Notes: a model not told the origin generated them from the letters alone. DNA of 64,000 nucleotides from Ignisphaera aggregans DSM 17230 (GCA_000145985.1 CP002098.1:803853-867852), one strand, 5' to 3'. Counted from the stretch's first letter, positions 29,534-61,664 are shown. Numbers and translations are program-made.

Positions 29534-30337
29534 TTATATTGTTGTAATAGGTGCTATTTCTAGATAGCCATAGCTATTACAGTAAATAGTTATACCCCTA
29601 ATACTACTACTAATCTTTATAACCTTTAGAAGCTCCATAGGCTTCCAACAACCTGTATTTATAATCTTTCTGCTATAGTCTATATAGCCTATATGTGAAT
29701 GTCCATAGACAAGCCAAACATTTCTACCAAGAGAATACAGCTTCCTTAGAAGTTCACCAGTTGGAAGTCTTCCAAATAGTTTGATCCCCATAATATCTAG
29801 GAGAAATGCTATTACACCAGATCTAAATGCATAATCTCCATGGGTAACAACAATATAATCATTACATCTATCTATCTTGAATACAGCTATATCTGGTATA
29901 ACCACTATATCTATATCTCTATATTTAAAGAATAGAGGTTTTGTAAATAGTGCTCTAAAGTCATGAAAACTTCTACTCGGTATAAATACGAGTCTAGTGT
30001 TGTGAAGATCCATAGCATTAATAGCTCTCTTTAAAGCCTCTACAATGGTTCTAGTACTAGAAATCTCTATAGGTTCATCAAATAGGTCACCTGCAACTAT
30101 AACAACATCAATATTCTTCTCCCTAACAATTCTACCAATATTATTAACGCCCTTAGATTTCCAGAGATGAACATCAGATACAATCATAATCTTCCTAAGA
30201 TTCCTAAAGCTATATCCAAATACCCTAGGTCTCCAGTACCCAGTTATCCAAGGCATATTCCAAGATATATATAGGGTTATGACCATTAATAGTGCTGTGA
30301 CTAGGAGTAGTATGGCTATAGTATCAATAAAGTTCAT
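29534..30337 (-). CDS. Calcineurin-like metallophosphoesterase, N-terminally membrane anchored
   Basis: Motifs VSDVHLW (DxH), VIVAGDLFD (GDxxD), THGDY and YGHSHIG (GHxH). N-terminal TM. Confidence 0.5.
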   Translation of the reverse strand: MNFIDTIAILLLVTALLMVITLYISWNMPWITGYWRPRVFGYSFRNLRKIMIVSDVHLWKSKGVNNIGRIVREKNIDVVIVAGDLFDEPIEISSTRTIVEALKRAINAMDLHNTRLVFIPSRSFHDFRALFTKPLFFKYRDIDIVVIPDIAVFKIDRCNDYIVVTHGDYAFRSGVIAFLLDIMGIKLFGRLPTGELLRKLYSLGRNVWLVYGHSHIGYIDYSRKIINTGCWKPMELLKVIKISSSIRGITIYCNSYGYLEIAPITTI

Positions 30338-30969: not shown

Positions 30970-31473
30970 TTGGCTAGAGAGAAAACAGTTTTGGAGAAGC
31001 TCCTTGAGCTTCTACCAGGTTTCCATGGATATAAAGCAAAGGAGTATCTGAGGGAGGATGATCAGCTTATTAGGGAGTATGTATATAGGATTATGGTTGA
31101 TAGTGTTAGAAATATAGAGAATGCTATTGCGAGAGTAGCTACATATGATTTTAGCGGTGCTGATATTCTAAATGAGTTTTTGAGGGATCTGAGATTCGTT
31201 ATGGATAAGATTAGATGGGCTGAACATGGCTATTCTCCTCACTATGATATTGTCAAGATAAGAGAGGATGATCTTGAGAAGATAAGGAAGATAGATGAAC
31301 AACTGGTTTCTATTGCCATGGATATAAAGGGTAAGAGTAGTGAGCTTCTTAATGAGGCAGAGCTTGGAAATCCTATAAGACCTAAGATAGGGGAGCTAAA
31401 AGCACTTATATCTAGGGTTAGAGATATTATCTTTGAGAGAGAGAAGCTACTTAGAGAGTGGGGTGCTAGATAA
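30970..31473 (+). CDS. Hypothetical helical protein, first gene of the SPFH/zinc-ribbon cluster
   Basis: 167 aa, charged, predicted helical. Stop overlaps the start of the SPFH gene (ATAATGG). Confidence 0.45.
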   Translation: MAREKTVLEKLLELLPGFHGYKAKEYLREDDQLIREYVYRIMVDSVRNIENAIARVATYDFSGADILNEFLRDLRFVMDKIRWAEHGYSPHYDIVKIREDDLEKIRKIDEQLVSIAMDIKGKSSELLNEAELGNPIRPKIGELKALISRVRDIIFEREKLLREWGAR

Positions 31474-32528
31474 TGGTTCTAAACAAAATAGGTAAGGGTA
31501 TAGGTACAATAGGTAGGAAGGCAACAGGATTTGAACCTATTGTCATTGAGTGGAAGGATGCATCTCCTCAGGACATAGTTTGGAGATTTCCTAATGAGGT
31601 TATTCCATGGGGATCTACGGTAATTGTTAAGGAGTGGGAGAGAGTTGTCTTCTATAGAGATGGAAAGGTATATGGTGTTCTCGATCCAGGTAGACATGTT
31701 CTAGATACACAAAATGTACCTTTTCTAAAAGGACTTGTAGAGGGTCTCTATGGAGAAAACATATTTAAGGCAATAGTCATTTTTGTCAATGTCAATAGGC
31801 TCCAGGGTAGATTCGGTGGTCAGAGTCAAACTGTTGAGCTTATCCCCATAAAATTCCATGGCAGTTACTACTATAGGGTTGTAGATCCTGCTCTATTTGT
31901 GAATAAGGTTGTTGGACCTGACAACAGGTTTACCACGGAGGAACTTGATTCATATATAAGGGGATACTTTATGTCTAGACTCATAGCATTTCTTGCACAG
32001 ACAAGTATAAGAGATGTTTATCAGAGGATTGAGGAAGCTGGGAAGAGAGCTCTATTTGTTTTGAGAAAACCTTTTGAGGAGATAGGTCTTATGCTTGAAG
32101 ATGTTGTTTTCGAGGGTCTAGAGGTACCACCTGAATATAGAGAGAGAATGTTCTGGTTATTACAAGGGACATCAGCTGCATATCTAGTTCAGCAAGAAAC
32201 TGCAAGAAAGTTTGCTGAAGCTATAGAGAAGACCCAGGCTGGGGGAGCAGCTATAGGTGCAGGTCTTGTTGCTATCCCCTATGCACTTCAGCCACCTCCA
32301 CCAACAGCACAACAACCAGTACAACAACAGCCAGGGGTTGCTGGAGGTGTTGTTGGAGCTGTAACAGGCTATGTAGCTAGATGCCCATATTGTGGAGGTA
32401 GCCCCATTCCACAGGGAGCAAAATTCTGTCCATTCTGTGGCCACCAGATAAAGTGGTGTAGAAATGGACATATAGTTCCAGTAGAAGCTAGATTCTGCCC
32501 AGTTTGTGGTGTAGCTATTGAGCAGTAA
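31473..32528 (+). CDS. SPFH (band-7/stomatin-like) domain protein with C-terminal double zinc ribbon (COG4260-like)
   Basis: SPFH-like N-terminal region (VIVKEWERVVFYRDGKVYGVLDPGRH), Gln/Pro-rich linker, and C-terminal CPYCG...CPFCG...CPVCG ribbons. Confidence 0.5.
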   Translation: MVLNKIGKGIGTIGRKATGFEPIVIEWKDASPQDIVWRFPNEVIPWGSTVIVKEWERVVFYRDGKVYGVLDPGRHVLDTQNVPFLKGLVEGLYGENIFKAIVIFVNVNRLQGRFGGQSQTVELIPIKFHGSYYYRVVDPALFVNKVVGPDNRFTTEELDSYIRGYFMSRLIAFLAQTSIRDVYQRIEEAGKRALFVLRKPFEEIGLMLEDVVFEGLEVPPEYRERMFWLLQGTSAAYLVQQETARKFAEAIEKTQAGGAAIGAGLVAIPYALQPPPPTAQQPVQQQPGVAGGVVGAVTGYVARCPYCGGSPIPQGAKFCPFCGHQIKWCRNGHIVPVEARFCPVCGVAIEQ

Positions 32529-33534
32529 TGGTTTTAGATGTAGCAACTGTGGAGCACCCCTAGAGATTTCTCCTGAGACAATAGTTGCAATATGTTCATA
32601 CTGTGGATATCCAAATTGGATTAGAGGAGATCTAAAGAGTGATATATACATAGTTAAAAGTGTTGATGAAGATGAAGCTATAAAGGTTGCAAAGAGATAC
32701 ATAGGATTATCATCTATAGATAGACCTCTAGTATTATTCATACCATTCTATATCGCTGAAGCTAGTGCTGATGCAGACTATGAAGCATTGACAAGGGTTA
32801 CTGTCCAGAGATGTACAACAGATAGCAAGGGAAGAACACACTGTACATCGAGAAGTATTAGGATTCATGTAGATGGAGTTCTTAATGGATATTACAATAG
32901 ATATCCTATTGTCGCTAGAAAGGGGGTTAGGGGTAAGACTATAGAGACACTATCTAAATACATATTATCATCGGGTATTAAAACTGTGAAACTTAGTGAA
33001 GCGAATATTGATAGAAGCAAGTCTAGATCTATACTAATGATAGATCTCTCACATGATGATACAAGAGATCTTGTGTTAGATAAACATCTGGATTCACTAC
33101 GTAAAACAGTTGAAGATAGGATAAAGAGTGAAGCTAGAGCTAGAGCATTAATCCACGGTACACCAATATCTGTGAATATACTGTGGAAGAGGATAACTCC
33201 TAGAAATATAAAGATAGATATATCGCCACCTATACTAGTTCCACTATATATCTTTACCGATGTTGGAAATAGATATAAAGCTGTTTTGACGGGGTGGGAT
33301 CTAAAGCCATTGATTATAGAGAAACCTGTTAGCCTTATATATAGAGCTCTATGGCTATCTCTAGGTGTTTTAACAGCTGGGGGTATAGGAGGTTTAGTGG
33401 GGCTTATAATACCCTTTGCAACAACTCCTATACCGCTAGCAATAGCAATATTGTTAATAGTTTTTGGGGGTATAGTCTCTTGGTATTCTGCTAAAAAGGC
33501 TCTAAGACCTGTTAGAGTAGTAGTTAAGGTGTAG
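32518..33534 (+). CDS. Zinc-ribbon protein with C-terminal TM anchor (paralog A)
   Basis: N-terminal CSNCG...CSYCG ribbon. Two C-terminal TM helices. Confidence 0.45.
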   Translation: MSSNGFRCSNCGAPLEISPETIVAICSYCGYPNWIRGDLKSDIYIVKSVDEDEAIKVAKRYIGLSSIDRPLVLFIPFYIAEASADADYEALTRVTVQRCTTDSKGRTHCTSRSIRIHVDGVLNGYYNRYPIVARKGVRGKTIETLSKYILSSGIKTVKLSEANIDRSKSRSILMIDLSHDDTRDLVLDKHLDSLRKTVEDRIKSEARARALIHGTPISVNILWKRITPRNIKIDISPPILVPLYIFTDVGNRYKAVLTGWDLKPLIIEKPVSLIYRALWLSLGVLTAGGIGGLVGLIIPFATTPIPLAIAILLIVFGGIVSWYSAKKALRPVRVVVKV

Positions 33535-33538
33535 ACTA

Positions 33539-34474
33539 GTGTCTGAGTCTATAGATATTAAATGTCCTTATTGTGGTGCTGGATATAGAGTTCCTAGAAC
33601 TGTTACATATGCTACATGTCCATACTGTGGAACAACATTTAAACTGGATAACCCTAGTGAGAAGATAGATCACTATCTATTCAAGGCTCTCATAGATGAT
33701 CAGAAGGCTTTCAACATTATAAAATCCTTTGCATCTCAGCAGGTTGGTGCGGAGAAGGATCTTATTGATAGAGCTAGTTTTGTATCCTCAAAACTCTTCT
33801 ACATACCTATATATCTATATGAGGCTAGGGTAAGAGCTCTATGTAGAGATGGTGATAAGGAGTATCATGGCGGAGAATCATATAATCAATATATTGTGAT
33901 TGCTATTGATAACCCTCCAATAGCTCTACCTACAGACTATGGCTTTCCAGCTAGAATGAGGGAATATTTCAAACCTACAATCTCTAGAAACTATATATAT
34001 CTACAACCAGTTAAAGACCCTATAGCAATATTTGAGGGGTTAAAGAGAAGAGATATTAGTGAGGCTATGAACGAGGCTAGAGAGGCATGTCCTTCATCAG
34101 ATATAAAGCTTGCTGATGAATCTAGATATATAGGATTAGCACACTATCCATTCTGGCAAATAGAGTATTCATATAAAGGAAACATATTTAGAGCAATTGT
34201 AGATGCAGCTGATGGAACTATACTATATCTAGAGTATCCACTCAATATAAAGAATGCTACTAAGGCATTGATAGGAGTTATTGCAGGCACAATCATAGCA
34301 AGTCTAATAGGTACAACAATAGCTATACAAAGCAATACAGCTTTTATAGGAGGTCTTGCAAGCTTCATAGCATTTACACCAGCACTCTATATCTCACTAT
34401 CAATGCTACTGAAAAGAAAAGCTACATATATGTATAATCCAGAGGAAGAAGCAGAATTCCTACCAACAAGATAA
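33539..34474 (+). CDS. Zinc-ribbon protein with C-terminal TM anchor (paralog B)
   Basis: N-terminal CPYCG...CPYCG ribbon and C-terminal TM helices. Same architecture as the preceding gene. Confidence 0.45.
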   Translation: MSESIDIKCPYCGAGYRVPRTVTYATCPYCGTTFKLDNPSEKIDHYLFKALIDDQKAFNIIKSFASQQVGAEKDLIDRASFVSSKLFYIPIYLYEARVRALCRDGDKEYHGGESYNQYIVIAIDNPPIALPTDYGFPARMREYFKPTISRNYIYLQPVKDPIAIFEGLKRRDISEAMNEAREACPSSDIKLADESRYIGLAHYPFWQIEYSYKGNIFRAIVDAADGTILYLEYPLNIKNATKALIGVIAGTIIASLIGTTIAIQSNTAFIGGLASFIAFTPALYISLSMLLKRKATYMYNPEEEAEFLPTR

Positions 34475-34911
34475 TATAAGAGTAGAACAACATCATTATG
34501 GTCAATACCAAATAAAGTCGATGTAGCCTCCATCTCTCTTTTCATTAGTGTTAGATAAATGTAATGTTTCATCAGTAATCATCAGAATAGATTACTAGCA
34601 TCATTTGAATTAGTTATTGTTACATATATAATGGCTATAGCTATGAAATTGCTTCTAGGGATAATAACTACTGTTAAAGGAGATATATGTTACAGCTGGT
34701 CCTTAGTACCAACTTGGATTTCCTGATAGCTATATACAAAGATGTATATGTAATGTTTATGGGATGAAGAGACATAGAAGGTGTTCAATGAATGGGCTAT
34801 GATAAATAACTTTGAGAATAAGCTAAGAAATGATAGATATATATGGGGAACTATATATAGATATCTTATTGAGTCAGCAGATATTAAATAGATTTTAAAT
34901 GTCTATTAGAT

Positions 34912-35373
34912 ATGCTGTATAGTTTTTATACCTTTTTCTATGTAGAGTTTGATATTAGTGAGAATATGGGTATTCAACTAGGTTTAACAATTGATGAAAA
35001 TATTTATGAGAAGCTTAGCATAGGTTCTAAGAAGCTGGGGGTAGATATAAACACTTTAGTTAGTAATATATTGAGGGAATGGATTGATAAGAATAGAATG
35101 CTTCTACTATCAGTTGATGAAATAGCTAAAGAATATGAAAATAGTCTATCCTCGTACTCTGAACATACACAGAAAACAAAGATTAGAATGGTTAGAAGTT
35201 TTCTTGAGTGGTGTGAGAGTAGAGGTATAAGTTTTGATAAAATAGATGTTAATACTGTTGAGTCATTTGCAAAGGAGTTAGAGAGTAGATATACATCCAA
35301 ATATGTTAATAGCTATAGAGCTACTCTTAGAGACTTTATCTACTGGTTTCAACAGAGATATGGAGTTAAGTAG
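34912..35373 (+). CDS. RHH-like plus integrase N-terminal SAM-like domain protein; no catalytic integrase domain
   Basis: Residues 19-60 look like a ribbon-helix-helix DNA-binding segment. The C-terminal half (IRMVRSFLEWCESRGISFDKIDVNTVESFAKELE...YRATLRDFIYWF) resembles the N-terminal core-binding domain of tyrosine recombinases. Confidence 0.4.
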   Translation: MLYSFYTFFYVEFDISENMGIQLGLTIDENIYEKLSIGSKKLGVDINTLVSNILREWIDKNRMLLLSVDEIAKEYENSLSSYSEHTQKTKIRMVRSFLEWCESRGISFDKIDVNTVESFAKELESRYTSKYVNSYRATLRDFIYWFQQRYGVK

Positions 35374-35467
35374 ATTCTAAATATTTTTTCAAAGGATTCA
35401 ATCTATTAGTTTTGCTATACTCTCACAAAATATAGCTATTGTACTGTTATATAGATATATTGAGACT

Positions 35468-36547
35468 ATGTCTATACATAAAGAAGAGGAGAAGATATAT
35501 ACTAATCCAAATCTAATCTATCTCATAAGAGAAAAACTTCTTAAATTCTTTAGCAATATTGCCTCCAACTGTATTGAGCCAAAGGCTATTGAGAAATGTC
35601 TTAATAGACTTAAAGATTCTAGGGATAGGATAAAGAGTAGTGGATGGCGACCTAGGAGAATAGGGGTTGTAGATGGTGGTAGTACTATAATAGCTCTTAA
35701 CTCTGGGTATATAGGTATTGCTGCAGCTATAGGCATAGTTATCGATGGTGATAGAGTTGTTGATAGAGTTGTTGCTGAACCTATTATAGTTCCTGAGGAT
35801 GTTGATAAATTATCGTTATTCCCAACACAACTAGATATTGATAGTGTTATAGATAAGCTGAGGGAGTCTCTAGTCTTTGAAACTAGTGCTAATCTTCTTG
35901 ATAAAGGTATAGATATGATTGTTATAGATGGTCCCTTAGCACCCTATTCAGCTCTTGGAAGGATAGTGGCATTTGAAGATATTGAGAGAAGTGCTTTAGA
36001 GAGATATAGAGATGCTGTTCTTAGATTCCATAAGATGTCCTATGAATATGATATAGATGTTGTTGGATTTGTTAAAAGACCTAGATCTAGATATCTTAGG
36101 AGGATGTATAGTGAATGTAGTATTGATGTCTTTGACCATGTGCTACTAGCTATGCTTCTTAGCGATGGAGAGTACTTCCCATCTATACCTAGAGAAATTA
36201 TTCCAGAGCCAGATATTATTAGAAGGCATGAGATTAGAGATATTGTTGATATTATAAAGCCTAGATTTATATATACAAGATTCTCTAGCTCTATGCCCCC
36301 ATATAGAGTTGAGTTTGGCCAACTAGAGAATGATTTTAGAGATATTCTAGGCTATCTATATTCATCTAGAACTAGGGAGGGGATACCATATATAGTTATG
36401 AAGGTTGATGAGGAGGTTAAGATGTCTAGGAAGCTTATAAGAGATCTCTATGACGATGTAAGACATGAATATATAGTTAAGTTTAGTGGAAGGGGATACA
36501 ATGCCTTAATCCCAATTCTACCAGAGTTTGGAGAATTGGGTGGTTGA
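35468..36547 (+). CDS. nurA: NurA-family 5'-3' nuclease
   Basis: N-terminal IGVVDGGS matches the NurA (I/V)DGS motif. 359 aa. 20-nt overlap with the downstream HerA gene. Confidence 0.55.
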   Translation: MSIHKEEEKIYTNPNLIYLIREKLLKFFSNIASNCIEPKAIEKCLNRLKDSRDRIKSSGWRPRRIGVVDGGSTIIALNSGYIGIAAAIGIVIDGDRVVDRVVAEPIIVPEDVDKLSLFPTQLDIDSVIDKLRESLVFETSANLLDKGIDMIVIDGPLAPYSALGRIVAFEDIERSALERYRDAVLRFHKMSYEYDIDVVGFVKRPRSRYLRRMYSECSIDVFDHVLLAMLLSDGEYFPSIPREIIPEPDIIRRHEIRDIVDIIKPRFIYTRFSSSMPPYRVEFGQLENDFRDILGYLYSSRTREGIPYIVMKVDEEVKMSRKLIRDLYDDVRHEYIVKFSGRGYNALIPILPEFGELGG

Positions 36548-38093
36548 AATGCTTAGTAGTACAATTGTTGAGAAGAGGATTGGCTATATATTTTCAGAGG
36601 ATGGGGTTTATCTACCAGATGAAATAACATTTACAGTTGAACTAGGTTCAAAGGTAGAGATAGGTGATATAGTCTGTATAGAACATCCATCGAAGGAGGG
36701 TATACCTGTATTCTACCAGGTTATAGAGGTTCCACTTAGGAGAAAGGCTAGGGATTATGAGGAGGATCTTGCTAGAGTTGGAAAGCCTTTACAGGATGAG
36801 TCTAGGAATTATCCTAGGGCTAGAGCTAGACAGATAGGATATATAGATGATTTGGAGAAGCTACTAGGTGGGGAGACATCTATAGATGATCTCCTTATGC
36901 TTATAGAGCATATAAAGCCTTTGAGCGAAGTCTATATACCTACACCAGAGGTTATAGATAAGCTACTTGCGCCCTCTGGACCAAGTATATCTCTAGGCTA
37001 TATATATCCAAGTTGGAAACATCAGCTAAAGCTAGATTTACAGAAGCTTATGAGACAGGGACTACTTATTGTTGGTGGTGTTGGGACTGGTAAGACAACG
37101 ACTATGCTTACAGTTATTATAAGGGTTATAGAGGAGGTTAAGAGGCTTGGTGGAAAGCCTCATATCGTTATCATCGATAAAGATGGTGAGTATGGTACAA
37201 AGGAGCTTATAGATGCTACAGGTATTGATGGATATGAGAGGATAGATATAGATATGGTAAAGCCTTTGGAGTATCGAGACAAGAATATGTATATAGACCA
37301 GCTGTTGTTAGCCCTAGGATTTGTTGATAAGAGAACAAAAGCTGCTAAGGCATTGACACAGACGGTTATGTCTCTAGATGAAGATATGTATATATTGACA
37401 CCAGAATTTGTAGAGAGAACAATTCTGCCGAAGATACCAAGCGATGTTAGAAGCGAGATAATGGCAAGAGTTGCACAGTGGAAGATCAGGGTCTCTAAAC
37501 CAAATACAAAATTCCATACAATTGAAACACTGCTACAGCTAGTAAAGACAAAGACTGTTGTACACATAGATCTATCGACAACTAGAAACTTTGACAATGC
37601 ATATCTAATTCTAGACAACTTGCTTAGAAGTATATACAACGAGGCTCTAGCAGATGAGGGATTTGGCTGTGTAATAGCTATAGATGAGGCACATCTATTT
37701 GCACCAGAGAGAGGAGGAATATCACTAGCATCAAATGAAGTGATAGAGAAAAACCTTAGAGACACGATACATCTAATAGCAACTACAGGTCCTAGAAATG
37801 GAGTGACACTATTCATAGCTACACAGAGGCCAAGCCTAATATCAAAAACAATAACAACACAAATGGGTCAAAACATAATTGCTCACAGAGTTGAAGACAT
37901 AGATCTAGAGAGAATAGAGGAGATAATGGGGAGTATAGCGAGAAGAGTAAGGGTATTGCCAAGGGGATGGGCATTAGTAAAATCACTTGCAGCAAAAGTT
38001 AGAGAGCCACTTATAATAAGGGTAGAAGCTATATCAAAACCTATGAGCATAGGAAAGACAGCATTTGATAGATTCATAGCCAAGAAATCTTAA
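36528..38093 (+). CDS. herA: HerA-family (FtsK/HerA superfamily) hexameric helicase/ATPase
   Basis: HAS-barrel-like N-terminus, Walker A GGVGTGKTTT, HerA-specific IIDKDGEYG motif, Walker B VIAIDEAHLFAPE. 521 aa. Confidence 0.75.
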   Translation: MENWVVEMLSSTIVEKRIGYIFSEDGVYLPDEITFTVELGSKVEIGDIVCIEHPSKEGIPVFYQVIEVPLRRKARDYEEDLARVGKPLQDESRNYPRARARQIGYIDDLEKLLGGETSIDDLLMLIEHIKPLSEVYIPTPEVIDKLLAPSGPSISLGYIYPSWKHQLKLDLQKLMRQGLLIVGGVGTGKTTTMLTVIIRVIEEVKRLGGKPHIVIIDKDGEYGTKELIDATGIDGYERIDIDMVKPLEYRDKNMYIDQLLLALGFVDKRTKAAKALTQTVMSLDEDMYILTPEFVERTILPKIPSDVRSEIMARVAQWKIRVSKPNTKFHTIETLLQLVKTKTVVHIDLSTTRNFDNAYLILDNLLRSIYNEALADEGFGCVIAIDEAHLFAPERGGISLASNEVIEKNLRDTIHLIATTGPRNGVTLFIATQRPSLISKTITTQMGQNIIAHRVEDIDLERIEEIMGSIARRVRVLPRGWALVKSLAAKVREPLIIRVEAISKPMSIGKTAFDRFIAKKS

Positions 38094-52617: not shown

Positions 52618-54231
52618 CTTTCTACCTCTTTGGGAGTTTCTATTTCTCTGTAAACACAAACATTACATCTTTTGTTTCGTGGTACAACCTTTCTACTCCC
52701 TTTTGGGAGTTTCTTAACAAGCAGCTATGGATCAGCTGTCATAGTCGGCGTCGCGGACGTCTTTCTACTCCCTTTTGAGAGTTTCTTAACTGTATCAAAT
52801 CCGCAGTTCTGGTTCAGAGCAACGGACAAATACTTTCTACTCCCTTTTGGGAGTTTCTGTTGTAACACTTTATTTATAGACTCGAGATCTAGTCTATACG
52901 CAATCGAGTCTTTCTACTCCCTTTTGGGAGTTTCGTTCTACATAGATAGTAGCGGGAATACGGTTTACGTAACTGCGTATCTTTCTACTCCCTTTTGGGA
53001 GTTTCAGATATATGGACAGGTGCTACAGGCTATAGCATCCATCAGAGCTTTCTACTCCCTTTTTGGAGTTTCAGGATATAGCCTATAGCAAATATAAACA
53101 CTCCAAAGAGACACAGAAACCTTTCTACTCCCTTTTGGGAGTTTCCAGATATGTGTCAGGCTTCCCCGTGCAATAAGGAAATATTTGGAGCAGACTTTCT
53201 ACTCCCTTTTGGGAGTTTCCTACTGCTTTGGGTACATATGTCTCTGGCTCTAGCCCTAGGAAGTTGTAGTATGCCTTTCTACTCCCTTTTGGGAGTTTCA
53301 TTTTTTGAGGTGGGAAGATGGGAAGAGACTATGTATACCTTGGAAAAACTTTCTACTCCCTTTTGGGAGTTTCTCTCCTCATGCCGAGCTTTACAAGTAA
53401 TGAGTATGTAACTATGTCTAGCTTTCTACTCCCTTTTGGGAGTTTCACGTATGATTCCTCGATCTTATCCTTCTGGCAGAGTAGCGTTCCATCTTTCTAC
53501 TCCCTTTTGGGAGTTTCGTGGTAGAGTTATCGAGGTGGGTAGGCCAGATGTTGACGTTCACGAAGACTTTCTACTCCCTTTTGGGAGTTTCTCATTTACA
53601 AATCCGTATTGGTCGTTAGGAGAGCTCTCAAAGATATCTTTCTACTCCCTTTTGGGAGTTTCATCAAGCAACAATAAGAGCTTGATCATCATAGCTATTG
53701 TACTTAGACCTCTTTCTACTCCCTTTTGGGAGTTTCAATTGCCTTTGCAGGTTATTTCCTTGGGGCTTACAGAGACTACCTTTCTACTCCCTTTTGGGAG
53801 TTTCTTGGCTTGTGATCTGCGGACTTTGCGATTAACTATCTTGATTAAACTTTCTACTCCCTTTTGGGAGTTTCTGCTGGACATGGATAACCTCAATGGG
53901 CTGTCTTCCGATCATGACCTTTCTACTCCCTTTTGGGAGTTTCAGGGATACTAACATCTCTATTGCCATTGATATTAACAATAGTTGTCATCATGACTTT
54001 CTACTCCCTTTTGGGAGTTTCTATATAAGACGTATTCGCAGATAATAGATCTATTCGCTGTAAGCCTTTCTACTCCCTTTTGGGAGTTTCAATAGACATT
54101 CGTCAATAGCTGTGCCCTGATTGTTGCAACAACAATCTTTCTACTCCCTTTTGGGAGTTTCAGGCGTGCTATCATGATTGGCTCTGTCGCTGCGATCCTG
54201 ACTGTGCTTTCTACTCCCTTTTGGGAGTTTC
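52618..54231 (-). CRISPR. CRISPR array: 23 copies of a 25-nt repeat, 22 spacers of 42-55 nt. Transcription is inferred on the minus strand, with the leader at the high-coordinate end
   Basis: Repeat CTTTCTACTCCCTTTTGGGAGTTTC. Repeat start positions are 52618 (degenerate, 23 nt), 52689, 52761 (GGGA to GAGA variant), 52833, 52910, 52981, 53048 (TTTTTGGAG variant), 53121, 53195, 53275, 53349, 53422, 53493, 53567, 53638, 53712, 53780, 53850, 53919, 53997, 54066, 54137, 54207. On the minus strand the repeat ends ...GUAGAAAG, like the archaeal 8-nt crRNA 5' handle. The degenerate repeat lies at the low-coordinate (trailer) end. Confidence 0.95.
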
Positions 54232-54428
54232 CGAGTATTATGTTTATATATCTGTTTATAAGTCTATATGATTTCATTACCAATGGATATTATTGGAACA
54301 TTCGTAGAGTCATTGATTAGCAACGACAATAGTGTTCTAATGAAAAAGAATAGAAATAATGAAACAGTACTAATTGTGAAGACACAATAACCATGCCATA
54401 GGTGTTCTAATAGGAAAAGAGTTGATTG
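54232..54428 (-). promoter_or_regulatory. CRISPR leader (AT-rich, about 200 nt) between the last perfect repeat and the csa3 stop
   Basis: AT-rich non-coding sequence next to the conserved end of the array, opposite the degenerate repeat. Confidence 0.5.
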
Positions 54429-55136
54429 CTAGAGCAACATTTTTGCTAGGTCTGTAGGTATATATTCATAGCTCTTTCCTTTCTTTTCATATTCTAGAAG
54501 TTCTTTCTTTACTAGTTTTACCAGTTTTCTTTGGAGTGTTTGTCTTGGTATGCCGAGTTTCTTTACTAGGTGTTTTGTTCTTTTTGTTCCTGTTGCTATC
54601 TCTTTCAATATCTGTAGCTCTGTATAGTCTATCTCTGCTAGTTTAAGTAGTATTGGTATTCTTATTACTCTTGATTCTTGTGTTGGGAATATCTGTCTTA
54701 TTATATCCCTCGTCTTTGTATCTTCCTCTAGCTCAAGCTCAAGTGTCTCTACAGAGACATTTGTGATATGTGAAAGTGTATGTGTTGCAAATGCTGCATA
54801 GGCAACAGCCATCGAAAGCCATCTAAAACCTCCAACAGCTAGGAAATAGGCTTTGCAGGGAGCAAATCTTTCAACATTTCTTCTAATCAGAGCAACATTC
54901 TCCTCAAAACCATTTCTAGGATCAAGCCAAAACATCTCAACAACAACCTCTCTATACACCTCTCTAAGCCATAGATCAAGTCTATTCATAGCATCCTCAG
55001 CATCAGACACCCTAGGAATAGAATTAAACAATAAAACAACATCGCCCTCACCAATACCAGTTCTACCAATAGCCCTAGCAACCCTCTCCCACGAAATACC
55101 AACACTTACAACAACAACCTTCCTCAAGCGACTCAC
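54429..55136 (-). CDS. csa3: Csa3-type CRISPR-associated transcriptional regulator (CARF-like N-domain plus C-terminal wHTH)
   Basis: 235 aa. N-terminal Rossmann-like segment (KVVVVSVGISWERV...). C-terminal HTH (TELQILKEIATGTKRTKHLVKKLGIPRQTLQRKL). Directly abuts the leader. Confidence 0.55.
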   Translation of the reverse strand: MSRLRKVVVVSVGISWERVARAIGRTGIGEGDVVLLFNSIPRVSDAEDAMNRLDLWLREVYREVVVEMFWLDPRNGFEENVALIRRNVERFAPCKAYFLAVGGFRWLSMAVAYAAFATHTLSHITNVSVETLELELEEDTKTRDIIRQIFPTQESRVIRIPILLKLAEIDYTELQILKEIATGTKRTKHLVKKLGIPRQTLQRKLVKLVKKELLEYEKKGKSYEYIPTDLAKMLL

Positions 55137-55174
55137 CTTAGCTGTAGCTATATGCTATATAGCTATAACTCACT

Positions 55175-55190
55175 GACAAAGTTTATAAGC
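55175..55190 (+). promoter_or_regulatory. BRE/TATA-like element (AAAGTTTATAAG) for the cas interference operon
   Basis: TTTATAA at 55182-55188 lies about 25-30 nt upstream of the first TTG/GTG start (55211/55229), consistent with a leaderless archaeal transcript. Confidence 0.35.
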
Positions 55191-55210
55191 TCAGTAGAAC
55201 GTATCTTCAG

Positions 55211-55618
55211 TTGCAGAGGTTTGAAACCGTGTCTCAAGAGAAACCCTCTATAGAGGAATCGATAGACATCGTTGGCGAATACCTAGCCGCCTTCCTGGCA
55301 GTTGAGCAGGACTGGGGCGCTATTGACGGACTTATGCATGCTCATAGACCTGAAGAAGCCTTGATGTACTACGACATGGCGCTTAGGCATGTCCACAAAG
55401 TTATGGAGGAGCTCGAAGAGCTGGGTCTGAAACTGTGGTTCCTCCACGGATTCGATCAGCACAGCAAAAACGTTAGAGACCTGCTATGCGATGAAGGCAA
55501 GGTGAAGAGTGTAGCGCTTAAACTTGTTGAGAGGGCTCTGTCAAAATATCCCAAATACTATGCCAAGCTGAAGAAGGAGACTGAGAAAGAAGAAGAGAAG
55601 GAAGAGGTAGAGGGATGA
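55211..55618 (+). CDS. csa5: Small alpha-helical subunit of type I-A Cascade (Csa5/Cas11-like candidate)
   Basis: 135 aa with a Glu/Lys-rich tail. Position immediately upstream of cas7 matches the I-A order. Start is TTG (55211) or GTG (55229). Assigned from context, not motif. Confidence 0.4.
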   Translation: MQRFETVSQEKPSIEESIDIVGEYLAAFLAVEQDWGAIDGLMHAHRPEEALMYYDMALRHVHKVMEELEELGLKLWFLHGFDQHSKNVRDLLCDEGKVKSVALKLVERALSKYPKYYAKLKKETEKEEEKEEVEG

Positions 55619-55622
55619 AACC

Positions 55623-56675
55623 TTGACGACTCCAAACCTCAAGCTCTACGTTCTAGCCCGCGTAGAGCTACAGCTGAGCTCGCTTAACGCCAGTGGTGCC
55701 ATAGGCAACTATACAAAGCTTCAGGAGGGATATGTGATAGTAAATACCAGCAGAGGTCCACTCCACGTACCAGTCCCAGTCATAACGGGCAACGCACTAA
55801 AGAACTGGCATGCAAGAGCAATGGCTGAAACGTATGTTAGCCTAGGAGGTAAAAAGATTCACGAATCGCACTTCGCAGACATGTACAGGCTCTCCCTCAA
55901 AAGACTTGGGAGCGAAGGAGAGCAAAAGAGCAAACTGTCTGAGGCTGGGCTCGTTAATGAATGCAGCATATGTGATGTTCACGGGTATCTCATAGCCGAA
56001 GCGGGTGTTCAACTAAAGAGGGAATCACTCATAAAGTTCAGTTTTGCTGTTCCAGTCGAAGAGGAGGTCAAACAGGTCACCGAGCAATATCTTCAGCTAA
56101 AGTTTGCGATAACACATAACAGAGTTACTGCTGATCCAAAGGAAATGATGCTCTTTAAGCGAGAATACGGAAGCACAGTGTTCGGATGGGAGACAATCTT
56201 AGACGTGGCATCTATAGGCAGATCGCAGTTCGAACGCAACAGTAGCTCCAATTCATGGCTCGGAAAACCGCTACTTACCAAAGACGGTAATAAAATTGCA
56301 TTCGACGAAATTACATTGCGCGCCAAAGCCGCAATACTAGCGTTTGTAGCACTACTAAGCGGACATCTTGGTGCCAACACATCTAGAGCCCTACCCCTGT
56401 CCAAGGTCGTTGATCTGGTTGTAATACGTTCCAACGGCTCTATACCTGTTCCGTTGCATCCGTTCTACGAGGACTACGCAAAGGATCTGCTGAGCCTCGT
56501 CAAATCGCCACTCGGTAACAGAATACAGAAGGTGTACTGCTTGAAGTATGGGAAGGCGTATGCGGAGCTACAGAATGAGAGGTCGAAGCTCGTAGAGTTC
56601 GATACATACTACGGGCTACTAGACGCCGTTGCCAAGGATGTTGAGGAAGCGCTGAAGCCGAGCCAGGCTAGCTAA
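55623..56675 (+). CDS. cas7: Cas7 (Csa2) backbone subunit of type I-A Cascade
   Basis: 350 aa. Region PVITGNALKNWHARA resembles the Csa2 G-rich loop. Conserved position between csa5 and cas5. Confidence 0.7.
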   Translation: MTTPNLKLYVLARVELQLSSLNASGAIGNYTKLQEGYVIVNTSRGPLHVPVPVITGNALKNWHARAMAETYVSLGGKKIHESHFADMYRLSLKRLGSEGEQKSKLSEAGLVNECSICDVHGYLIAEAGVQLKRESLIKFSFAVPVEEEVKQVTEQYLQLKFAITHNRVTADPKEMMLFKREYGSTVFGWETILDVASIGRSQFERNSSSNSWLGKPLLTKDGNKIAFDEITLRAKAAILAFVALLSGHLGANTSRALPLSKVVDLVVIRSNGSIPVPLHPFYEDYAKDLLSLVKSPLGNRIQKVYCLKYGKAYAELQNERSKLVEFDTYYGLLDAVAKDVEEALKPSQAS

Positions 56676-56684
56676 ATCGAATGG

Positions 56685-57503
56685 ATGAGCGGGGCTGAGC
56701 AGCGCATGAAGGTGCTCCTGTTCGAAGTCAAATCCCTTTTTTACTCCTACAAGGCACCCATCGCCTACCAGGTCAAGGCCTCCAACATGCTTCCCCCACC
56801 GTCTGCGCTCCTGGGGGCTGTGTACAGGAACTACGTAAGGGAAACCTCAAGCTCATACAGCAAGGATTCCCTGTCTGAATTCTTGAGGTCTGTGGCGTAT
56901 GCAGGCTTTGCGGTCCTCCCCGTGGATGACAGAGGCTTCGTATCGTTCAGGAAGTTCGTGGTTCTGCTGAAGCATTGGAGACTCGAAAAGGACGAAGAAG
57001 AACCCCGCCCCGATGCTATGCTCCGCGAGTACGTCTATATGCACGGCAGGCTCGTGGGTGTGATTGCCTATAACGGGTTAAACAACGAAACCTTAACGAA
57101 GGTTGTTGAAACTATTGAGTACTTGGGGAACAGCGAATCGCTGATTGGCATCAGGGCACTGGAATCGGGGCTCTCAGTAAAGAGCGCCGAAGAGTGCGGA
57201 GATGGGTACATGACGCAGATGATCTCTAGCTCTGTAAATAATCTGCCCCGCCACGGAGTTATAGAGCAGTGCGGAAGGGTTCCCAGATCACCCTGGGGTG
57301 GGCGTGAAACCGCTGATGTATGCTATGTGTGGAACCCCCTCGAGCCCGCCGGTAAAGACCTCTACAGACCCATACGGTTCGGTGACATACGAACCGAGCT
57401 ACTAGAGGATCTACGCAAGAAGGTTGCCTGCGTCGAGAGCGTAGCACTGAACGCCAGACTCGTGTTCACCTCCGCGGGCTTTGAATGCCTCAAGAGGGGG
57501 TAG
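56685..57503 (+). CDS. cas5: Cas5 (Cas5a)
   Basis: 272 aa. N-terminal KAPIAYQVKASNMLPPPSALLGAVYRN matches the Cas5 RAMP N-terminal pattern (PPPS..LxG). Confidence 0.65.
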   Translation: MSGAEQRMKVLLFEVKSLFYSYKAPIAYQVKASNMLPPPSALLGAVYRNYVRETSSSYSKDSLSEFLRSVAYAGFAVLPVDDRGFVSFRKFVVLLKHWRLEKDEEEPRPDAMLREYVYMHGRLVGVIAYNGLNNETLTKVVETIEYLGNSESLIGIRALESGLSVKSAEECGDGYMTQMISSSVNNLPRHGVIEQCGRVPRSPWGGRETADVCYVWNPLEPAGKDLYRPIRFGDIRTELLEDLRKKVACVESVALNARLVFTSAGFECLKRG

Positions 57504-59535
57504 GCTCGCGATGGATTCAATGCTCGATACAACGGTTGAGGCATTTAAGGTGATGATCTCAAGACGTGCAGGCTTAGACAAGGAAGCCGTTACGCCCTAC
57601 AGATACCAGCTGGAAGCCTTCAGAGAGTTCGAGAGGCTGGCTAGCGGTGACTTGGACGTGCTGATTGTACGGGCTCCACCAGCGAGGGGCAAAACAGAGG
57701 CACCCATCGCTTCCTTCTTGGCTCAGTTCGTTTCGGGCGAAATCCTCCTCCCAAGGATCATCTACGCCACCCCTACACAGACGCTACTGTATAGCATGGT
57801 TAGAAGGTTCGAGGGCTATCTCGAGGCTCTCTCCTCAGCATACGAGAGCTTCAAGTCATGGAGGGAGAAGCTGAACCCCGTGGCCGAGCACGGGCTGGAC
57901 GTGGATCCACAGTATCTGATTCCTAGGTTCACGGTGTCCACATATGACGTTGTAGCGTATGCGTGGACCGCCAGGAGGGCGATTCCGTGGAGGCCCTTCA
58001 CGACCCGCGGAGCCCTGATCTCAAGCCTCGTGGTGTTCGACGAGGCGCACTTAGTGCAGGATTCGTACACGTACTCTCAGAGGGTGTTCGTTAAGCTCGT
58101 CGAAACCATGGCTAGATCCGGGACCCCGATCGTGATCATGTCCGCGACTCTGCCCAACAAGTTCGTCGAGGATCTGAGCAAGGGTCTCGACGGAGACCTC
58201 GTGAGAGAGGTTGTTGATAGTGGCGCGTCGATTCCCGGCAAAATATCCGTATCCGTCGTTGATGACAGCGCCCCCACCACAGATTTCGAGCGGGCTATGG
58301 CCGAAATCCTCAATGTTGCGAATGATGCTGCGAGAAGTGGTAAGGACGTGCTGCTGGTCTTCAACACGGTCAGAGCTGCCGTTAAGGTCTACAACGTGTT
58401 AGCTACGAAGTTGGAGAAGGAGGCATTCACCGTAGTTGAGGTGAAGGATAAGGACGATGTCGAGAGGGCTCTGAAGGACGATGGGAAGGGCAGGATCGCC
58501 CTTCTGGTGCTCGTTCACGGCAGGCTTCCCATGGGCGTGCGCAGGAGGCGCGAAGAGCTGTTCGAAAGTTTGAGGAGAATACGCAGTGGAATGACTGAGG
58601 AAGGTTTGGAGAAGAGGTGGAGCCTCATAGTTGTGGCGACACAGGTGGCTGAGGTGGGTCTCGACTACAGCTTCGACTATGTGGTCGCTGAGCTTGCGCC
58701 GCCGTCAGCGCTAGTGCAACGGATTATGCGGGCTGGTAGAATCAGGGGGCAACACTCCGAAGCCTTAGTTCTGCCGCCCATCGCATTCGAATGCGACATC
58801 GATTCGGAGTGTACACCCCCCTCTTTCTTCGTGTACGCGAAAAGTACTCTAGACCTTGGAAGGGAGTTCGTGGGGGAGATCAGCAAAGACCCCGCTAGGG
58901 TTGCGGACGTAATCTACGTCGCCGACTGGGTGGACAGGGAGTTCAAGGCTATCGAGTCAGAGACCAAGGAATGGGCAGAAATACTTGTGAACCGAGCGCA
59001 CCAGATCCTCGACACAAGCAGGTTCGTTCCGCCGTTCGCAACAGTAGTTCATCGGAGAATCCTTGAGAGCTTCAAGTTCAGGCTCGGAGAGTACGTAGCT
59101 CTGCGCATACTCGGCGAAGAGACCTCGGAACTTGAGAAGGTCGCTGACATCGGGGAATTCGAGAGAAGGCTCGGCGAGCTGATTGCCAAGCCCGGTGAGG
59201 GGCTGCGCGAACTCATCGAGGGGAGCGTTAGATACGCGCTCCACTTCAGAAAGAGGGAGATCGGCGGTGACAAGTATACTGTTGCCATGCTGCCAAGGGA
59301 ATGCGTGTGGACCGTGGGCGACGAGCATGTTGTGACGTATGTGCGCTCGGTGCGTGGAGGGAAGGTCGAAATCGGCTTCCTGGTGCTGAAGAAGCTGGAC
59401 GAGAGCGGCAGAGTCTACGCCGCACCAGGCGTGGAGGACATCTGCGGCAGATTACTGATCTGCAAGCGCGTTCCCGGATTCGAGCCGGAGATTGGTCTTG
59501 TAGAGGTGGAAGAGGTTGAACTCGTCGTTCGGTGA
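57481..59535 (+). CDS. cas3': Cas3' superfamily-2 helicase
   Basis: Motif I PARGKTEA, motif II VVFDEAHL, and later helicase motifs (VATQVAEVGLD). 684 aa. Confidence 0.75.
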   Translation: MNASRGGRLAMDSMLDTTVEAFKVMISRRAGLDKEAVTPYRYQLEAFREFERLASGDLDVLIVRAPPARGKTEAPIASFLAQFVSGEILLPRIIYATPTQTLLYSMVRRFEGYLEALSSAYESFKSWREKLNPVAEHGLDVDPQYLIPRFTVSTYDVVAYAWTARRAIPWRPFTTRGALISSLVVFDEAHLVQDSYTYSQRVFVKLVETMARSGTPIVIMSATLPNKFVEDLSKGLDGDLVREVVDSGASIPGKISVSVVDDSAPTTDFERAMAEILNVANDAARSGKDVLLVFNTVRAAVKVYNVLATKLEKEAFTVVEVKDKDDVERALKDDGKGRIALLVLVHGRLPMGVRRRREELFESLRRIRSGMTEEGLEKRWSLIVVATQVAEVGLDYSFDYVVAELAPPSALVQRIMRAGRIRGQHSEALVLPPIAFECDIDSECTPPSFFVYAKSTLDLGREFVGEISKDPARVADVIYVADWVDREFKAIESETKEWAEILVNRAHQILDTSRFVPPFATVVHRRILESFKFRLGEYVALRILGEETSELEKVADIGEFERRLGELIAKPGEGLRELIEGSVRYALHFRKREIGGDKYTVAMLPRECVWTVGDEHVVTYVRSVRGGKVEIGFLVLKKLDESGRVYAAPGVEDICGRLLICKRVPGFEPEIGLVEVEEVELVVR

Positions 59536-60439
59536 CCTTGTGAAGCGGCTCGAAGCCTTAACCGGGGGCAGAGTCGAGGAATACCTCTCCTACAGACCTA
59601 AGGAGAGCGAGGGACGGGAGACGCTGATGAGTCACATCATGCTGACCGTCCGCTACGCCTCGGCGCTGAGCGATCACATAGTCACGCTCGCAAGGATAGT
59701 ACGCAAGATCGACATTGCTCTGAGCCCCGAAAACGCTAGGAGGGTCGTGCGGTACCTGGTTCTGTTCACAGCATTCTACCACGACATAGGGAAGGCTGAG
59801 GCGCATTATCAGCTCTACGCTCACGGAGCGGTGGACAGAGTGGGGGTGCCCCACAACTACGCCTCGGTGGCTTTCGTGGTCGAGAACGACGACATCTTCG
59901 AGGGCTTCGTTGAGGCGCTGACTGGGAACTACGGCGTTAGTGTCAGGGCGGCGGAGGTCATGTTCGACTCGTCCCTGACCGCGATAGCCCTACACCACGA
60001 GTACTACGACTACAAGGATCTGTCCTTCGTCGAGGTTCTGACGCCTCTGACGATAGCCCTAGCCAAGAATGTCGATTCGCTGACTGAGCTTGCGTTCCAC
60101 GAATCCGTTTTCGACCTCTTGCGGAGTCTCGCAGAAGAGGTCGGACGAAACCTCAACGTACGAATCCCTGTTCCAGCTACTCGCAGGAACTTTTCGACGA
60201 CGCTCGGTCGAGCGATAGAGTACGTTGCCACGCTGCACTACGAGTTCGGAGCACTGAACGTCAGACGGGAGGGTGGATCCATTAGAGTAAGCATGGACGA
60301 AGCCATCGCCTCGGTCCTCGAGCTGGCTGAGGCGCTGACGTGGGTTCTAGTGCTCGCAGACAACCTCGCCGCGCGCCACAGGGGTTCGACAGGCGAGGAA
60401 TCCTTTTTCGCGTCCCTGATCGGCAGGTACTACGGGTGA
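59516..60439 (+). CDS. cas3'': Cas3'' HD-domain nuclease
   Basis: HD motif FYHDIGKAEAHYQ plus downstream His-rich LHHEYYD. 307 aa. Split-cas3 arrangement typical of type I-A. Confidence 0.7.
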   Translation: MNSSFGDLVKRLEALTGGRVEEYLSYRPKESEGRETLMSHIMLTVRYASALSDHIVTLARIVRKIDIALSPENARRVVRYLVLFTAFYHDIGKAEAHYQLYAHGAVDRVGVPHNYASVAFVVENDDIFEGFVEALTGNYGVSVRAAEVMFDSSLTAIALHHEYYDYKDLSFVEVLTPLTIALAKNVDSLTELAFHESVFDLLRSLAEEVGRNLNVRIPVPATRRNFSTTLGRAIEYVATLHYEFGALNVRREGGSIRVSMDEAIASVLELAEALTWVLVLADNLAARHRGSTGEESFFASLIGRYYG

Positions 60440-60449
60440 GGGGATTGGT

Positions 60450-61658
60450 ATGGGAGGTCTCAAATTAATTCCCATATACACGCACTATGTCACACCGACA
60501 TACAGTAAATATAATTTGCTGGGAATGCTGCACGTAGCAAGTAGGTTCCGGACAGCCATCATCCGCCGTGTTCGGGTGCACGGCTACACCTACACTGTCG
60601 AGCTACTGACCGACAAGAGCGAGCGAGAGCTGGCGCAGGATTTGGCGGAGACCGTACAAAGGGAGCGCAGAGAAATAGTGAGGGCTGAGGGCAAGCGCTA
60701 CAGAGCTATGGATGGGTTTGGCTTCGTCTGCCAATCATCGGGTACCGACCCTTACTTCAATGCTCCGGCTGTCTGCAGGTATATTGAATACCTCACAGGC
60801 AAGGAGACCTCGCTGTCGACTGTAAGCAAGTCCGGGAAGGGTCGAAAATCCACTCAGGCATCAGAAAGCGAAGTCTTCAGCTCGATATTCGCAGAGAGGA
60901 TACATGACAAGCGCAGTAGCACCGGAAAATCACCCTCCCTCATCCTCGCTCCGGAGCTCGGGAAATACGCAACATCGGGAATCCCATACGAGGGCGGTCT
61001 CTACCCCGACGTTGGAGATTCCGGCGGCGCTTCCGCATGCCTGCTTTTCGCTCTGATCGGGTGGGCTTGCTGTAGCTTCAAGTGGGAGATCGCTGAAGAG
61101 AGGAGGAGCCACCACGTCTTCGCATATGTGGCTCCGAAAGACTATCTAGGCCATGCCGAGGCCAAGGCTCTGTACTGGATCGGGAGGAGGCTTGCGTACG
61201 TTACGTCGCTCTTCGTGAGCTACGCAGGTCGGGAGGCCAGCGAAGTGAAGGAGAAGCTCTCAACTCTAGGTATCTTGGCTATGCTTTCACCTGTTATCAG
61301 AGATGTTGCGGAGAGCGCTGATATCCTCTCGAAGCTCGAACTGAACATATACACGCACTCATTTGAGGGCGGTAGGCATAGCATCAGGATCGCTGGAGCC
61401 TTTGGTCTCGATAGGGTTGATGTGAGGTTGCTTCCATCTAGACTCGTAGGGGCTATGCTCGCATATGTCAATCACCTACCAAAGCTGGTCTTCGAGGTTC
61501 CATCGTTTCTGAATACGCTGGGTGAGTACTTGGTTTCTGGCAACGACGTTCTATATATTGAGGCTCTCAGAGAGTTAGCATCAGTTCTAAGCGATAGAGA
61601 GACGTCTGAGGATACTAAATGGATGGCAAGAGTACTCCTGCAGAATGCTGGAAGGTGA
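60450..61658 (+). CDS. cas8a: Candidate large subunit Cas8a (Cas8a2/Csa4-like)
   Basis: 402 aa. The position after cas3'' in the I-A gene order is the main evidence. No diagnostic motif recognised. Confidence 0.4.
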   Translation: MGGLKLIPIYTHYVTPTYSKYNLLGMLHVASRFRTAIIRRVRVHGYTYTVELLTDKSERELAQDLAETVQRERREIVRAEGKRYRAMDGFGFVCQSSGTDPYFNAPAVCRYIEYLTGKETSLSTVSKSGKGRKSTQASESEVFSSIFAERIHDKRSSTGKSPSLILAPELGKYATSGIPYEGGLYPDVGDSGGASACLLFALIGWACCSFKWEIAEERRSHHVFAYVAPKDYLGHAEAKALYWIGRRLAYVTSLFVSYAGREASEVKEKLSTLGILAMLSPVIRDVAESADILSKLELNIYTHSFEGGRHSIRIAGAFGLDRVDVRLLPSRLVGAMLAYVNHLPKLVFEVPSFLNTLGEYLVSGNDVLYIEALRELASVLSDRETSEDTKWMARVLLQNAGR

Positions 61659-61664
61659 GAATTC

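Follow-up and report, generated by a model that had tools for sequence, protein, structure and literature searches.

A stand-alone nurA–herA gene pair of Ignisphaera aggregans and its place in a discrete archaeal paralogue clade

The 64,000-nucleotide (nt) stretch of the Ignisphaera aggregans DSM 17230 genome analysed here, called the window below, encodes on its plus strand a NurA-family nuclease followed at once by a HerA-family ATPase. The two genes are a nurA paralogue (35468..36547; 359 amino acids (aa), RNase H-like, with an intact acidic triad) and a herA paralogue (36549..38093; 514 aa from the ATG at 36549, an FtsK/HerA-type P-loop ATPase). Sequence comparison places the pair in a small, discrete and old archaeal clade of two-gene paralogues that appears to have been inherited mostly vertically and lost often. 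An original prediction, made from the DNA sequence alone, had offered several readings, a defence module and a mobile-element-derived module among them, and its proposal of a 'second specialised DNA-processing system' is the one that fits such a clade best. We suggest, with moderate confidence, that this autonomous operon encodes a duplicated form of the HerA–NurA machine with which archaea process DNA ends, and that it gives the cell a second, specialised means of degrading such ends; a defence role seems less likely to us.

Both genes are already annotated, their products being 100% identical to deposited I. aggregans DSM 17230 proteins (NurA to a 'NurA domain' protein, HerA to an 'AAA ATPase'). 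Extra nurA–herA pairs have been known in crenarchaea since 2012 (PMC3396285), and CRISPR-linked ones since 2014 (PMC3973734). What is new here is the delineation of a discrete clade with intact catalytic motifs, its strict two-gene architecture, and the finding that the upstream gene and gap are incidental to it. Debate over archaeal HerA–NurA has been reopened, a 2026 study arguing that the complex breaks down both DNA strands and could act against viruses instead of in resection (PMC12977600); a catalytically intact clade that is never linked to Mre11/Rad50 offers a test case for separating 'repair' from 'DNA destruction' roles.

The NurA and HerA proteins

The three open reading frames (ORFs) of the original prediction, namely the pair and a small gene upstream of it, were found at the coordinates it had given when the ORFs of the window were checked, and the motifs it had quoted are seen in the translations: VDGGS, at NurA residues 68-72, and GGVGTGKTT, IIDKDGEYG and AIDEAHLFAPE in HerA. 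The hidden Markov model searches that it had proposed as a check returned PF09376, DUF87 and Phage_int_SAM_1 above their cut-offs, and RHH_3 below.

NurA belongs to the NurA nuclease family, PF09376, as judged from both its sequence and its predicted fold. It matches nearly the whole profile (positions 2-253 of 254) with an expectation value (E) of 7e-14 and 52.4 bits against a cut-off of 21, and PF09376 is carried by all 33 of its homologues. In a fold search with the AlphaFold2 (AF2) model, whose predicted local distance difference test score (pLDDT) is 87, Foldseek ranks 1-10 are all solved NurA structures, led by Sulfolobus solfataricus NurA 2YGK (E 5.6e-15, template-modelling (TM) scores 0.61/0.67, 17% identity) and continuing with the NurA proteins of Thermococcus kodakarensis (9X1M) and Pyrococcus furiosus (3TAI). 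Among 27 homologues there is no change at D69, E133, D154, K203, D223-H224, K312, D314-E315 or D330; the model puts D69 on a strand, E133 on a helix, and D154 and K203 at strand ends. The catalytic residues of Sulfolobus NurA are D58/E116/D133, with an essential K202 (PMC3326311), and the conserved D69/E133/D154/K203 appear to mirror these four in order and spacing.

HerA is a P-loop ATPase that is recognised by HerA profiles and retains the Walker A, Walker B and TQRP motifs. It matches DUF87, the HerA central domain, with an E of 2e-10 (41.6 bits, cut-off 23.2) and the HerA models of PADLOC down to 1e-19, mostly over its C-terminal half. Little or no variation is seen among 21 homologues in the Walker A (GGVGTGKTT), Walker B (IDEAH), ATTGPRNG and TQRP motifs. 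The family profile aligns with Sulfolobus HerA 4D2I over most of its length (profile positions 104-480, E 7.7e-14), aligns also with Thermococcus HerA 9X1L, and matches several solved bacterial HerA-family ATPases as well as or better than canonical HerA. Because the catalytic motifs are conserved, the NurA fold matches and the HerA profile aligns, both NurA and HerA look active as far as can be judged from sequence.

The herA start at ATG 36549 lies 1 nt past the nurA stop, behind a GGTGG motif; it yields the 514 aa of the deposited protein, and all homologues start at its equivalent. Alternative starts stand upstream at GTG 36540 and TTG 36528. The 20-nt overlap of the two genes that had been predicted holds with TTG 36528 only and is lost with ATG 36549, the coupling being tight either way.

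Distribution, linkage and inheritance of the pair

The absence of mre11 and rad50 from the 64 kb, which the original prediction had pointed out, is borne out by Pfam scans and ORF lengths. Scans of nearly all ORFs of at least 150 aa in the window found no Mre11 candidate and no SMC/Rad50-type protein, and the ORFs outside these scans either fall short of the size of Mre11/Rad50 or merely shadow other genes on the opposite strand. Four ORFs alone exceed 600 aa, and they encode a GH35 beta-galactosidase, an adenine deaminase, a GH3 enzyme and Cas3. The sole Metallophos match is a 267-aa protein (29534-30337) that does not adjoin the pair, and it was not accepted as Mre11 on account of its length.

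Distance from the repair proteins also sets the pair apart. In Pyrobaculum the repair pair has NurA Pfam E values of 1e-43 to 1e-65 and HerA BLAST values against SSO2251 of about 1e-38 to 1e-40, and the two non-repair pairs have Pfam values of 1e-9 to 1e-43 and BLAST values of about 1e-5 (PMC3396285, Table A2). With NurA at 7e-14 in Pfam and HerA at only 1.5e-5 in a comparison with Sulfolobus HerA 4D2I, the window pair shows values of the non-repair kind and is probably not the repair orthologue. It displays neither the linkage nor the orthology to Sulfolobus/Pyrococcus repair genes by which a canonical herA-mre11-rad50-nurA set is recognised.

Database searches yielded 33 NurA and 85 HerA relatives, nearly all from metagenome-assembled hyperthermophilic archaea, and an exhaustive profile search of 1.84 billion representatives (50%-identity clusters) gave only 25 HerA clusters at E<=1e-30. 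Full-length clade members score about 190-666 bits with the HerA profile and most other HerA relatives about 80-120 bits; behind one such relative, which scores 106 bits, stands a Metallophos-type gene in the canonical herA-mre11 order, the Pfam match of that gene being only faint. A scan of one genome per species by sequence pattern, in which I. aggregans itself was not among the loci returned, found 35 clear clade loci (L011-L045); its other matches were weaker, ten of them archaeal and eight, which were weak, bacterial. The clear loci come from Thermoprotei/Desulfurococcales/Pyrodictiaceae, Korarchaeia, Caldarchaeales/Nitrososphaeria and Wolframiiraptor, as well as from Aenigmatarchaeota, Hydrothermarchaeales and one Asgard archaeon. 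This pattern-based scan found no clade locus in a cultivated genus, Pyrobaculum and Thermosphaera included. Alone among the named clade matches, I. aggregans DSM 17230 is in cultivation, and its proteins are therefore the practical starting point for biochemistry.

The two-gene architecture is strict. nurA stands directly before herA in 34/34 loci for which upstream sequence is available, and the two genes abut or overlap in all homologous loci. To look for a conserved third gene, the ORFs lying up to 7 kb from herA in 39 loci were clustered all against all; only nurA recurs, every other ORF family being limited to at most 5/39. Pfam recognises 148 families among the 118 immediate neighbours, and no theme runs through them. 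Neighbour Pfam scans and ORF clustering found no mre11 or rad50 beside any homologous pair: Metallophos neighbours occur only at three related Aenigmatarchaeota loci and one other, and these proteins, of 255-256 aa and unlike the Metallophos gene of the window, were rejected as Mre11.

At a locus whose NurA is 52% identical to that of the window (L010:418-5124), a divergent SIR2-family gene and a downstream DUF262/GmrSD_N gene flank the pair, the latter matching PADLOC HEC-05 at 9e-30; this is the most defence-like neighbourhood among the loci. In Hydrothermarchaeales (L044:298-3601; L045:7795-11134) HerA is about 660 aa long, with an N-terminal extension of about 150 aa, and the upstream partner, of 436-444 aa, falls outside the NurA cluster yet has NurA-like VGxDGSQ and IFMDYPL motifs, so that it is probably a very divergent NurA. 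Long NurA forms of 452-557 aa (L019 and L027) were considered as fusions and set aside, since they look like artefacts of choosing the start of the longest ORF.

Further bearing on the history of the pair, the identities of NurA and HerA to the window proteins fall together across relatives (89/81, 77/77, 52/69, 47/66, 40/57 and 27/43%), and sequences in a neighbour-joining HerA tree group largely by taxonomy. The clearest transfer in that tree appears to be the Asgard sequence, which lies beside the Desulfurococcales clade.

The upstream gene, the gap and the flanking genes

The small gene upstream of nurA most probably starts at ATG 34966, giving a 135-aa protein (34966..35373, plus strand); it would encode 153 aa if ATG 34912 were used. 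The later start is favoured because two of three homologues begin there and because a conserved TATA-like element, TTTTTATAC (34923..34931, plus strand), stands 35-43 nt upstream of it. This element is unchanged in three Ignisphaera sequences, those of the window and of two Ignisphaera-related metagenomic contigs (L007 and L008), and is a putative promoter.

The original prediction had seen in the 153-aa ORF a ribbon-helix-helix (RHH) joined to the N-terminal domain of a tyrosine recombinase, with the catalytic domain missing. The recombinase part holds, Phage_int_SAM_1 scoring 26.4 bits (cut-off 22.3) over residues 74-145 with no catalytic domain attached, and the RHH part is less firm, RHH_3 staying below threshold at 16.5 bits (cut-off 21.6). 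An AF2 model (pLDDT 81) has a strand at 19-28 and helices at 29-42 and 46-60, followed by four helices; local pLDDT in the beta-alpha-alpha, RHH-like part is only 65-84. The best Foldseek matches are N-terminal parts of tyrosine recombinases (2KIW, Cre, Tn1549 Int and archaeal Xer), with probabilities of 0.97-1 for the first dozen, 0.72 for Tn1549 Int and 0.44 for Xer at weak E values of 0.16-3, and viral integrases match in the same way.

By both Pfam and fold, the four helices thus resemble the tyrosine-recombinase core-binding domain (PF02899; 2KIW, Cre, Tn1549 Int, Xer 4A8E), 2KIW itself being a stand-alone domain N-terminal to an integrase. The small protein differs from tyrosine recombinases in lacking the catalytic domain, for which no ORF was found in Pfam scans of the window, and in being joined to an RHH-like N-terminus. 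The protein stops where a 41%-identical homologue also stops and is therefore not a truncated integrase. Likewise dropped was the idea that the gene is a fragment of a split SSV-type integrase, given its SAM-like domain, the conserved end of the protein and a search that turned up no partner fragment.

The prediction had also treated the small gene, nurA and herA as one trio, and this does not stand. The small protein has only three homologue clusters, restricted to Ignisphaera relatives, and ORF clustering in 39 loci found the gene at none of the more distant nurA–herA loci. In the closest relative, L007, whose NurA is 89% identical, its homologue (2030-2457) is a pseudogene with an ATG->ATA change, a 28-nt deletion, several 1-2-nt insertions or deletions and frameshifts, and a TGG->TAG change, and nurA–herA is intact there. 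A gene so rare and lineage-limited, and decayed in the closest relative, does not form a functional unit with the pair. The small protein is predicted to be a stand-alone, lineage-specific DNA-binding protein (RHH-like plus core-binding) with its own promoter, and is at most a dispensable local regulator. A second TATA-like element, AAAATATAGCTA (35427..35438, plus strand), upstream of nurA, is kept in the window, L007 and L008, and is intact in L007 although the small gene there is a pseudogene; nurA–herA would accordingly have a promoter of its own, separate from that of the small gene.

The 440-bp AT-rich gap that the original prediction had placed before the small gene is not empty and holds the 3' relic of a DUF1028/PG_binding_2 gene (34757..34891, plus strand), amounting to its last ~45 codons with an in-frame TAG at 34775-34777. 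Alignments of L007 and L008 with the window (blastn and tblastx) begin at 34732-34757, and the relic, once translated, lines up with the C-terminal ends encoded by the intact genes of these contigs, which are 91% identical to each other and stand directly before the small gene and nurA. Sharp borders delimit the block common to the relatives, and the genes beside it differ; its upstream border lies at about 34755. Because the DUF1028 gene is intact in L007 and L008, this border is a rearrangement breakpoint in I. aggregans and not the edge of a mobile element; a deletion or rearrangement appears to have joined the operon upstream to the nurA–herA block.

That operon is a tightly packed group of four genes at 30970-34474, encoding according to Pfam one protein of 167 aa, one SPFH/Band-7 protein whose C-terminus bears a double zinc ribbon, and two membrane proteins, each with an N-terminal zinc ribbon. 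The original prediction had placed the pair between sugar-hydrolase and transporter genes; its transporters are not confirmed, the upstream neighbours being this SPFH/zinc-ribbon membrane-protein operon. A Band_7 gene also lies about 5.5 kb upstream of nurA–herA in L005/L006, probably by coincidence.

Proposed role, alternatives and known systems

If the pair works as the Sulfolobus and Thermococcus complexes do, a HerA hexamer would load onto a free double-stranded DNA end, its ATP hydrolysis would drive the DNA through the pore and on into the NurA dimer docked against the hexamer, and the RNase H-like active sites of NurA would degrade one or both strands. The stoichiometry, the DNA-end substrate and the biological role are suggested by analogy with these complexes; candidate substrates would be repair intermediates or unwanted linear DNA.

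Several points count against such a role as a second end-degrading system. The N-terminal ~100 residues of HerA, where a HAS barrel is expected, match no Pfam model (none over residues 1-150) and no solved HerA by sequence (profile alignments with Protein Data Bank chains start at ~71-104), and docking of NurA on HerA is for this reason assumed. A sequence search with the NurA family profile finds none of the solved NurA proteins, not even at E<=1, and the equation of D69/E133/D154 with D58/E116/D133 is drawn from order, spacing and predicted secondary-structure position, not from residue-level superposition. A separate canonical herA/nurA/mre11/rad50 set elsewhere in I. aggregans is an expectation, derived from a passage of PMC4641729 that reports HerA, NurA, Mre11 and Rad50 in all known thermophilic archaea. 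Lastly, related loci have occasional toxin–antitoxin (TA) or restriction-like neighbours, and a CRISPR-Cas locus lies 14.6 kb off in I. aggregans.

The alternative that survives best, though we hold it unlikely, is an innate defence module, a stand-alone anti-virus or anti-plasmid system that would destroy incoming linear DNA from its ends, as RecBCD does or as has been proposed for Thermococcus HerA–NurA. HerA matches PADLOC HerA models, as noted above, and its profile fits bacterial HerA-family ATPases (9C1M, 8XAU) at least as well as canonical HerA; the clade is rare and patchy, with an Asgard sequence nested beside Desulfurococcales; and some loci stand beside HEPN/MNT or PIN/RHH pairs, or beside DUF262/GmrSD-like and SIR2-family genes. 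As HEPN/MNT pairs abound in the genomes of hyperthermophiles, this adjacency says little in favour of defence. An antiviral role has also been proposed for the HerA–NurA of T. kodakarensis, which degrades both strands (PMC12977600).

Against defence, the anti-phage HerA systems of PADLOC (SIR2-HerA, DUF4297-HerA, MADS and others) need a signature effector, and here only HerA matches, PADLOC returning no match for NurA or the small gene. The defence-island context suggested by the original prediction proved weak and inconsistent when the neighbourhoods of related loci and their 118 immediate neighbours were examined with Pfam and PADLOC: only occasional TA or DUF262 genes appear, and the neighbours, spread over so many families, are mainly housekeeping or unrelated, with PIN in only 3. 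The few PADLOC matches among them are mostly generic, one being an ordinary DNA methyltransferase; no defence family recurs, the 'mad8/mad3/mad2' matches looking generic ATPase-type or partial (mad2 alone was traced, to a partial match). The HerA tree mostly follows taxonomy, unlike fast-moving defence genes, and searches of viral contigs, plasmids and phages found no family members. A bolder form of the idea, that the whole clade is a self-contained archaeal innate-immunity nuclease acting on incoming linear viral or plasmid DNA, an analogue of the RecBCD type separate from the repair HerA–NurA, strikes us as rather doubtful; were it true, I. aggregans would seem to offer the sole cultivated host for its study.

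It is improbable that this is the only HerA–NurA of the organism, that is, the end-resection system itself with its Mre11–Rad50 genes outside the window. Repair nurA and herA are indeed not co-located in some crenarchaea, such as Vulcanisaeta (PMC3396285), but the distance of the pair from Sulfolobus repair proteins is that of non-repair paralogues, and the clade was found in no other cultivated organism, either in the genome scan or among the named protein matches. The report of all four proteins throughout thermophilic archaea in the passage cited above also tells against it, as does the alignment of an I. aggregans NurA, the copy being unspecified, with canonical orthologues (PMC3326311).

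A CRISPR array and a cas locus, neither of them in the original prediction, occupy the same window, the array lying 14.6 kb downstream of the pair. The array (52683-54232) has at least 22 repeats with the core CTTTCTACTCCCTTTTGGGAGTTTC, spaced ~67-80 nt; it was recovered by a repeat search after Tandem Repeats Finder (TRF) at default settings had missed it, and a 172-aa ORF inside it (53436-53954) was discarded as spurious. The cas locus (54429-63957, both strands) is type I-A-like by Pfam and comprises a Csa3 regulator (54429-55136, minus), Cas7/Csa2 (55623-56675), a 272-aa ORF that is probably cas5 (56685-57503), Cas3 helicase (57481-59535), Cas3 HD (59516-60439), a 402-aa ORF that is possibly cas8a (60450-61658), Cas6 (61665-62447), Cas4 (62473-63057, minus) and Cas1 (63316-63957, minus). 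The Pfam match of Cas1 begins at profile position 111, and the true cas1 start therefore probably lies upstream, at higher coordinates. The interference module, from cas7 to the putative cas8a (~55200-61500), has a GC content of 0.46-0.59 against ~0.36 in the rest of the window, the adjoining cas6, cas4 and cas1 having 0.31-0.36; this jump of some 20 points suggests a high-GC donor, from which the module would have been gained or swapped in.

That the pair is an accessory of this type I-A locus, like the nurA-csm6-herA of Pyrobaculum or the 'Cas HerA/NurA' of Thermosphaera, is very unlikely. The array, the Csa3 regulator gene and the cas genes do lie 14.6-26 kb downstream of the pair, CRISPR-linked nurA–herA paralogues exist (PMC3396285, PMC3973734), and Csa3a is reported, in work cited within PMC12977600, to bind nurA/herA promoters in Sulfolobus. 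Between the pair and the array, however, stand eight unrelated metabolic genes, adjoining the pair itself no csm6/CARF gene was detected, and in none of more than 50 related loci was an array or a cas homologue found within 10 kb of it. Scarcely credible, finally, is an origin of small gene, nurA and herA as cargo or remnant of an integrated element: the recombinase core-binding domain and the sharp borders of the shared block would suit it, but the upstream border cuts a host gene that is intact and adjoining in two relatives, the small protein is no truncated integrase, Pfam scans of the window found no recombinase catalytic domain, the GC content of the locus (0.33-0.39) is that of its surroundings, the searches of viral, plasmid and phage sequences gave no homologues, and a search for flanking direct repeats or att sites over 33.5-39.5 kb returned nothing but short repeats, direct or inverted and 67-94% identical, of the sort that chance would produce in AT-rich DNA.

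Several known systems resemble the pair. With canonical archaeal HerA–NurA (4D2I/2YGK; 9X1L-9X1P; 3TAI) the window pair shares its families, the predicted fold, the triad with its lysine, the Walker motifs and tight gene coupling. It differs from the canonical cluster in having no linkage to mre11/rad50, in its gene order of nurA then herA, adjoining, in its very low sequence similarity, and in a HerA N-terminal domain that is unrecognisable by sequence. Comparable too are the paralogous nurA–herA pairs of Thermoproteales (Bernick et al., 2012), which include the CRISPR-associated nurA-csm6-herA and a third pair, PAE2154/PAE2155 (PMC3396285), and the 'Cas HerA/NurA' Tagg_0815/0814 of Thermosphaera (PMC3973734). 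The Thermoproteales pairs are likewise extra, detached from Mre11/Rad50 and comparably weak in their similarity to the repair proteins; the window clade differs from them in that neither csm6 nor CRISPR adjacency was detected at its loci.

Among bacteria, the NurA–HerA pairs of Deinococcus radiodurans (7F6D), Thermus (HepA) and Thermotoga (TM1739, 1ZUP) are also two-gene systems without linked Mre11/Rad50. In the fold search their NurA proteins are related to that of the window (7F6D_G at E 8.8e-6, 1ZUP at 5.7e-5) but structurally more distant than the archaeal ones, and the window clade is essentially archaeal. The bacterial HerA-plus-effector defence systems (SIR2–HerA, DUF4297–HerA), to which we take 8XAU, 9C1M, 8ZIQ and 8YHO to belong as HerA-family chains, similarly pair a HerA-family ATPase with an effector of nuclease type, the two genes forming one cassette, and the window HerA matches these chains as well as it does canonical HerA, or better. 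The partner in the window is instead NurA, not SIR2 or DUF4297, and the distribution of the clade is archaeal and, as its tree suggests, largely vertical.

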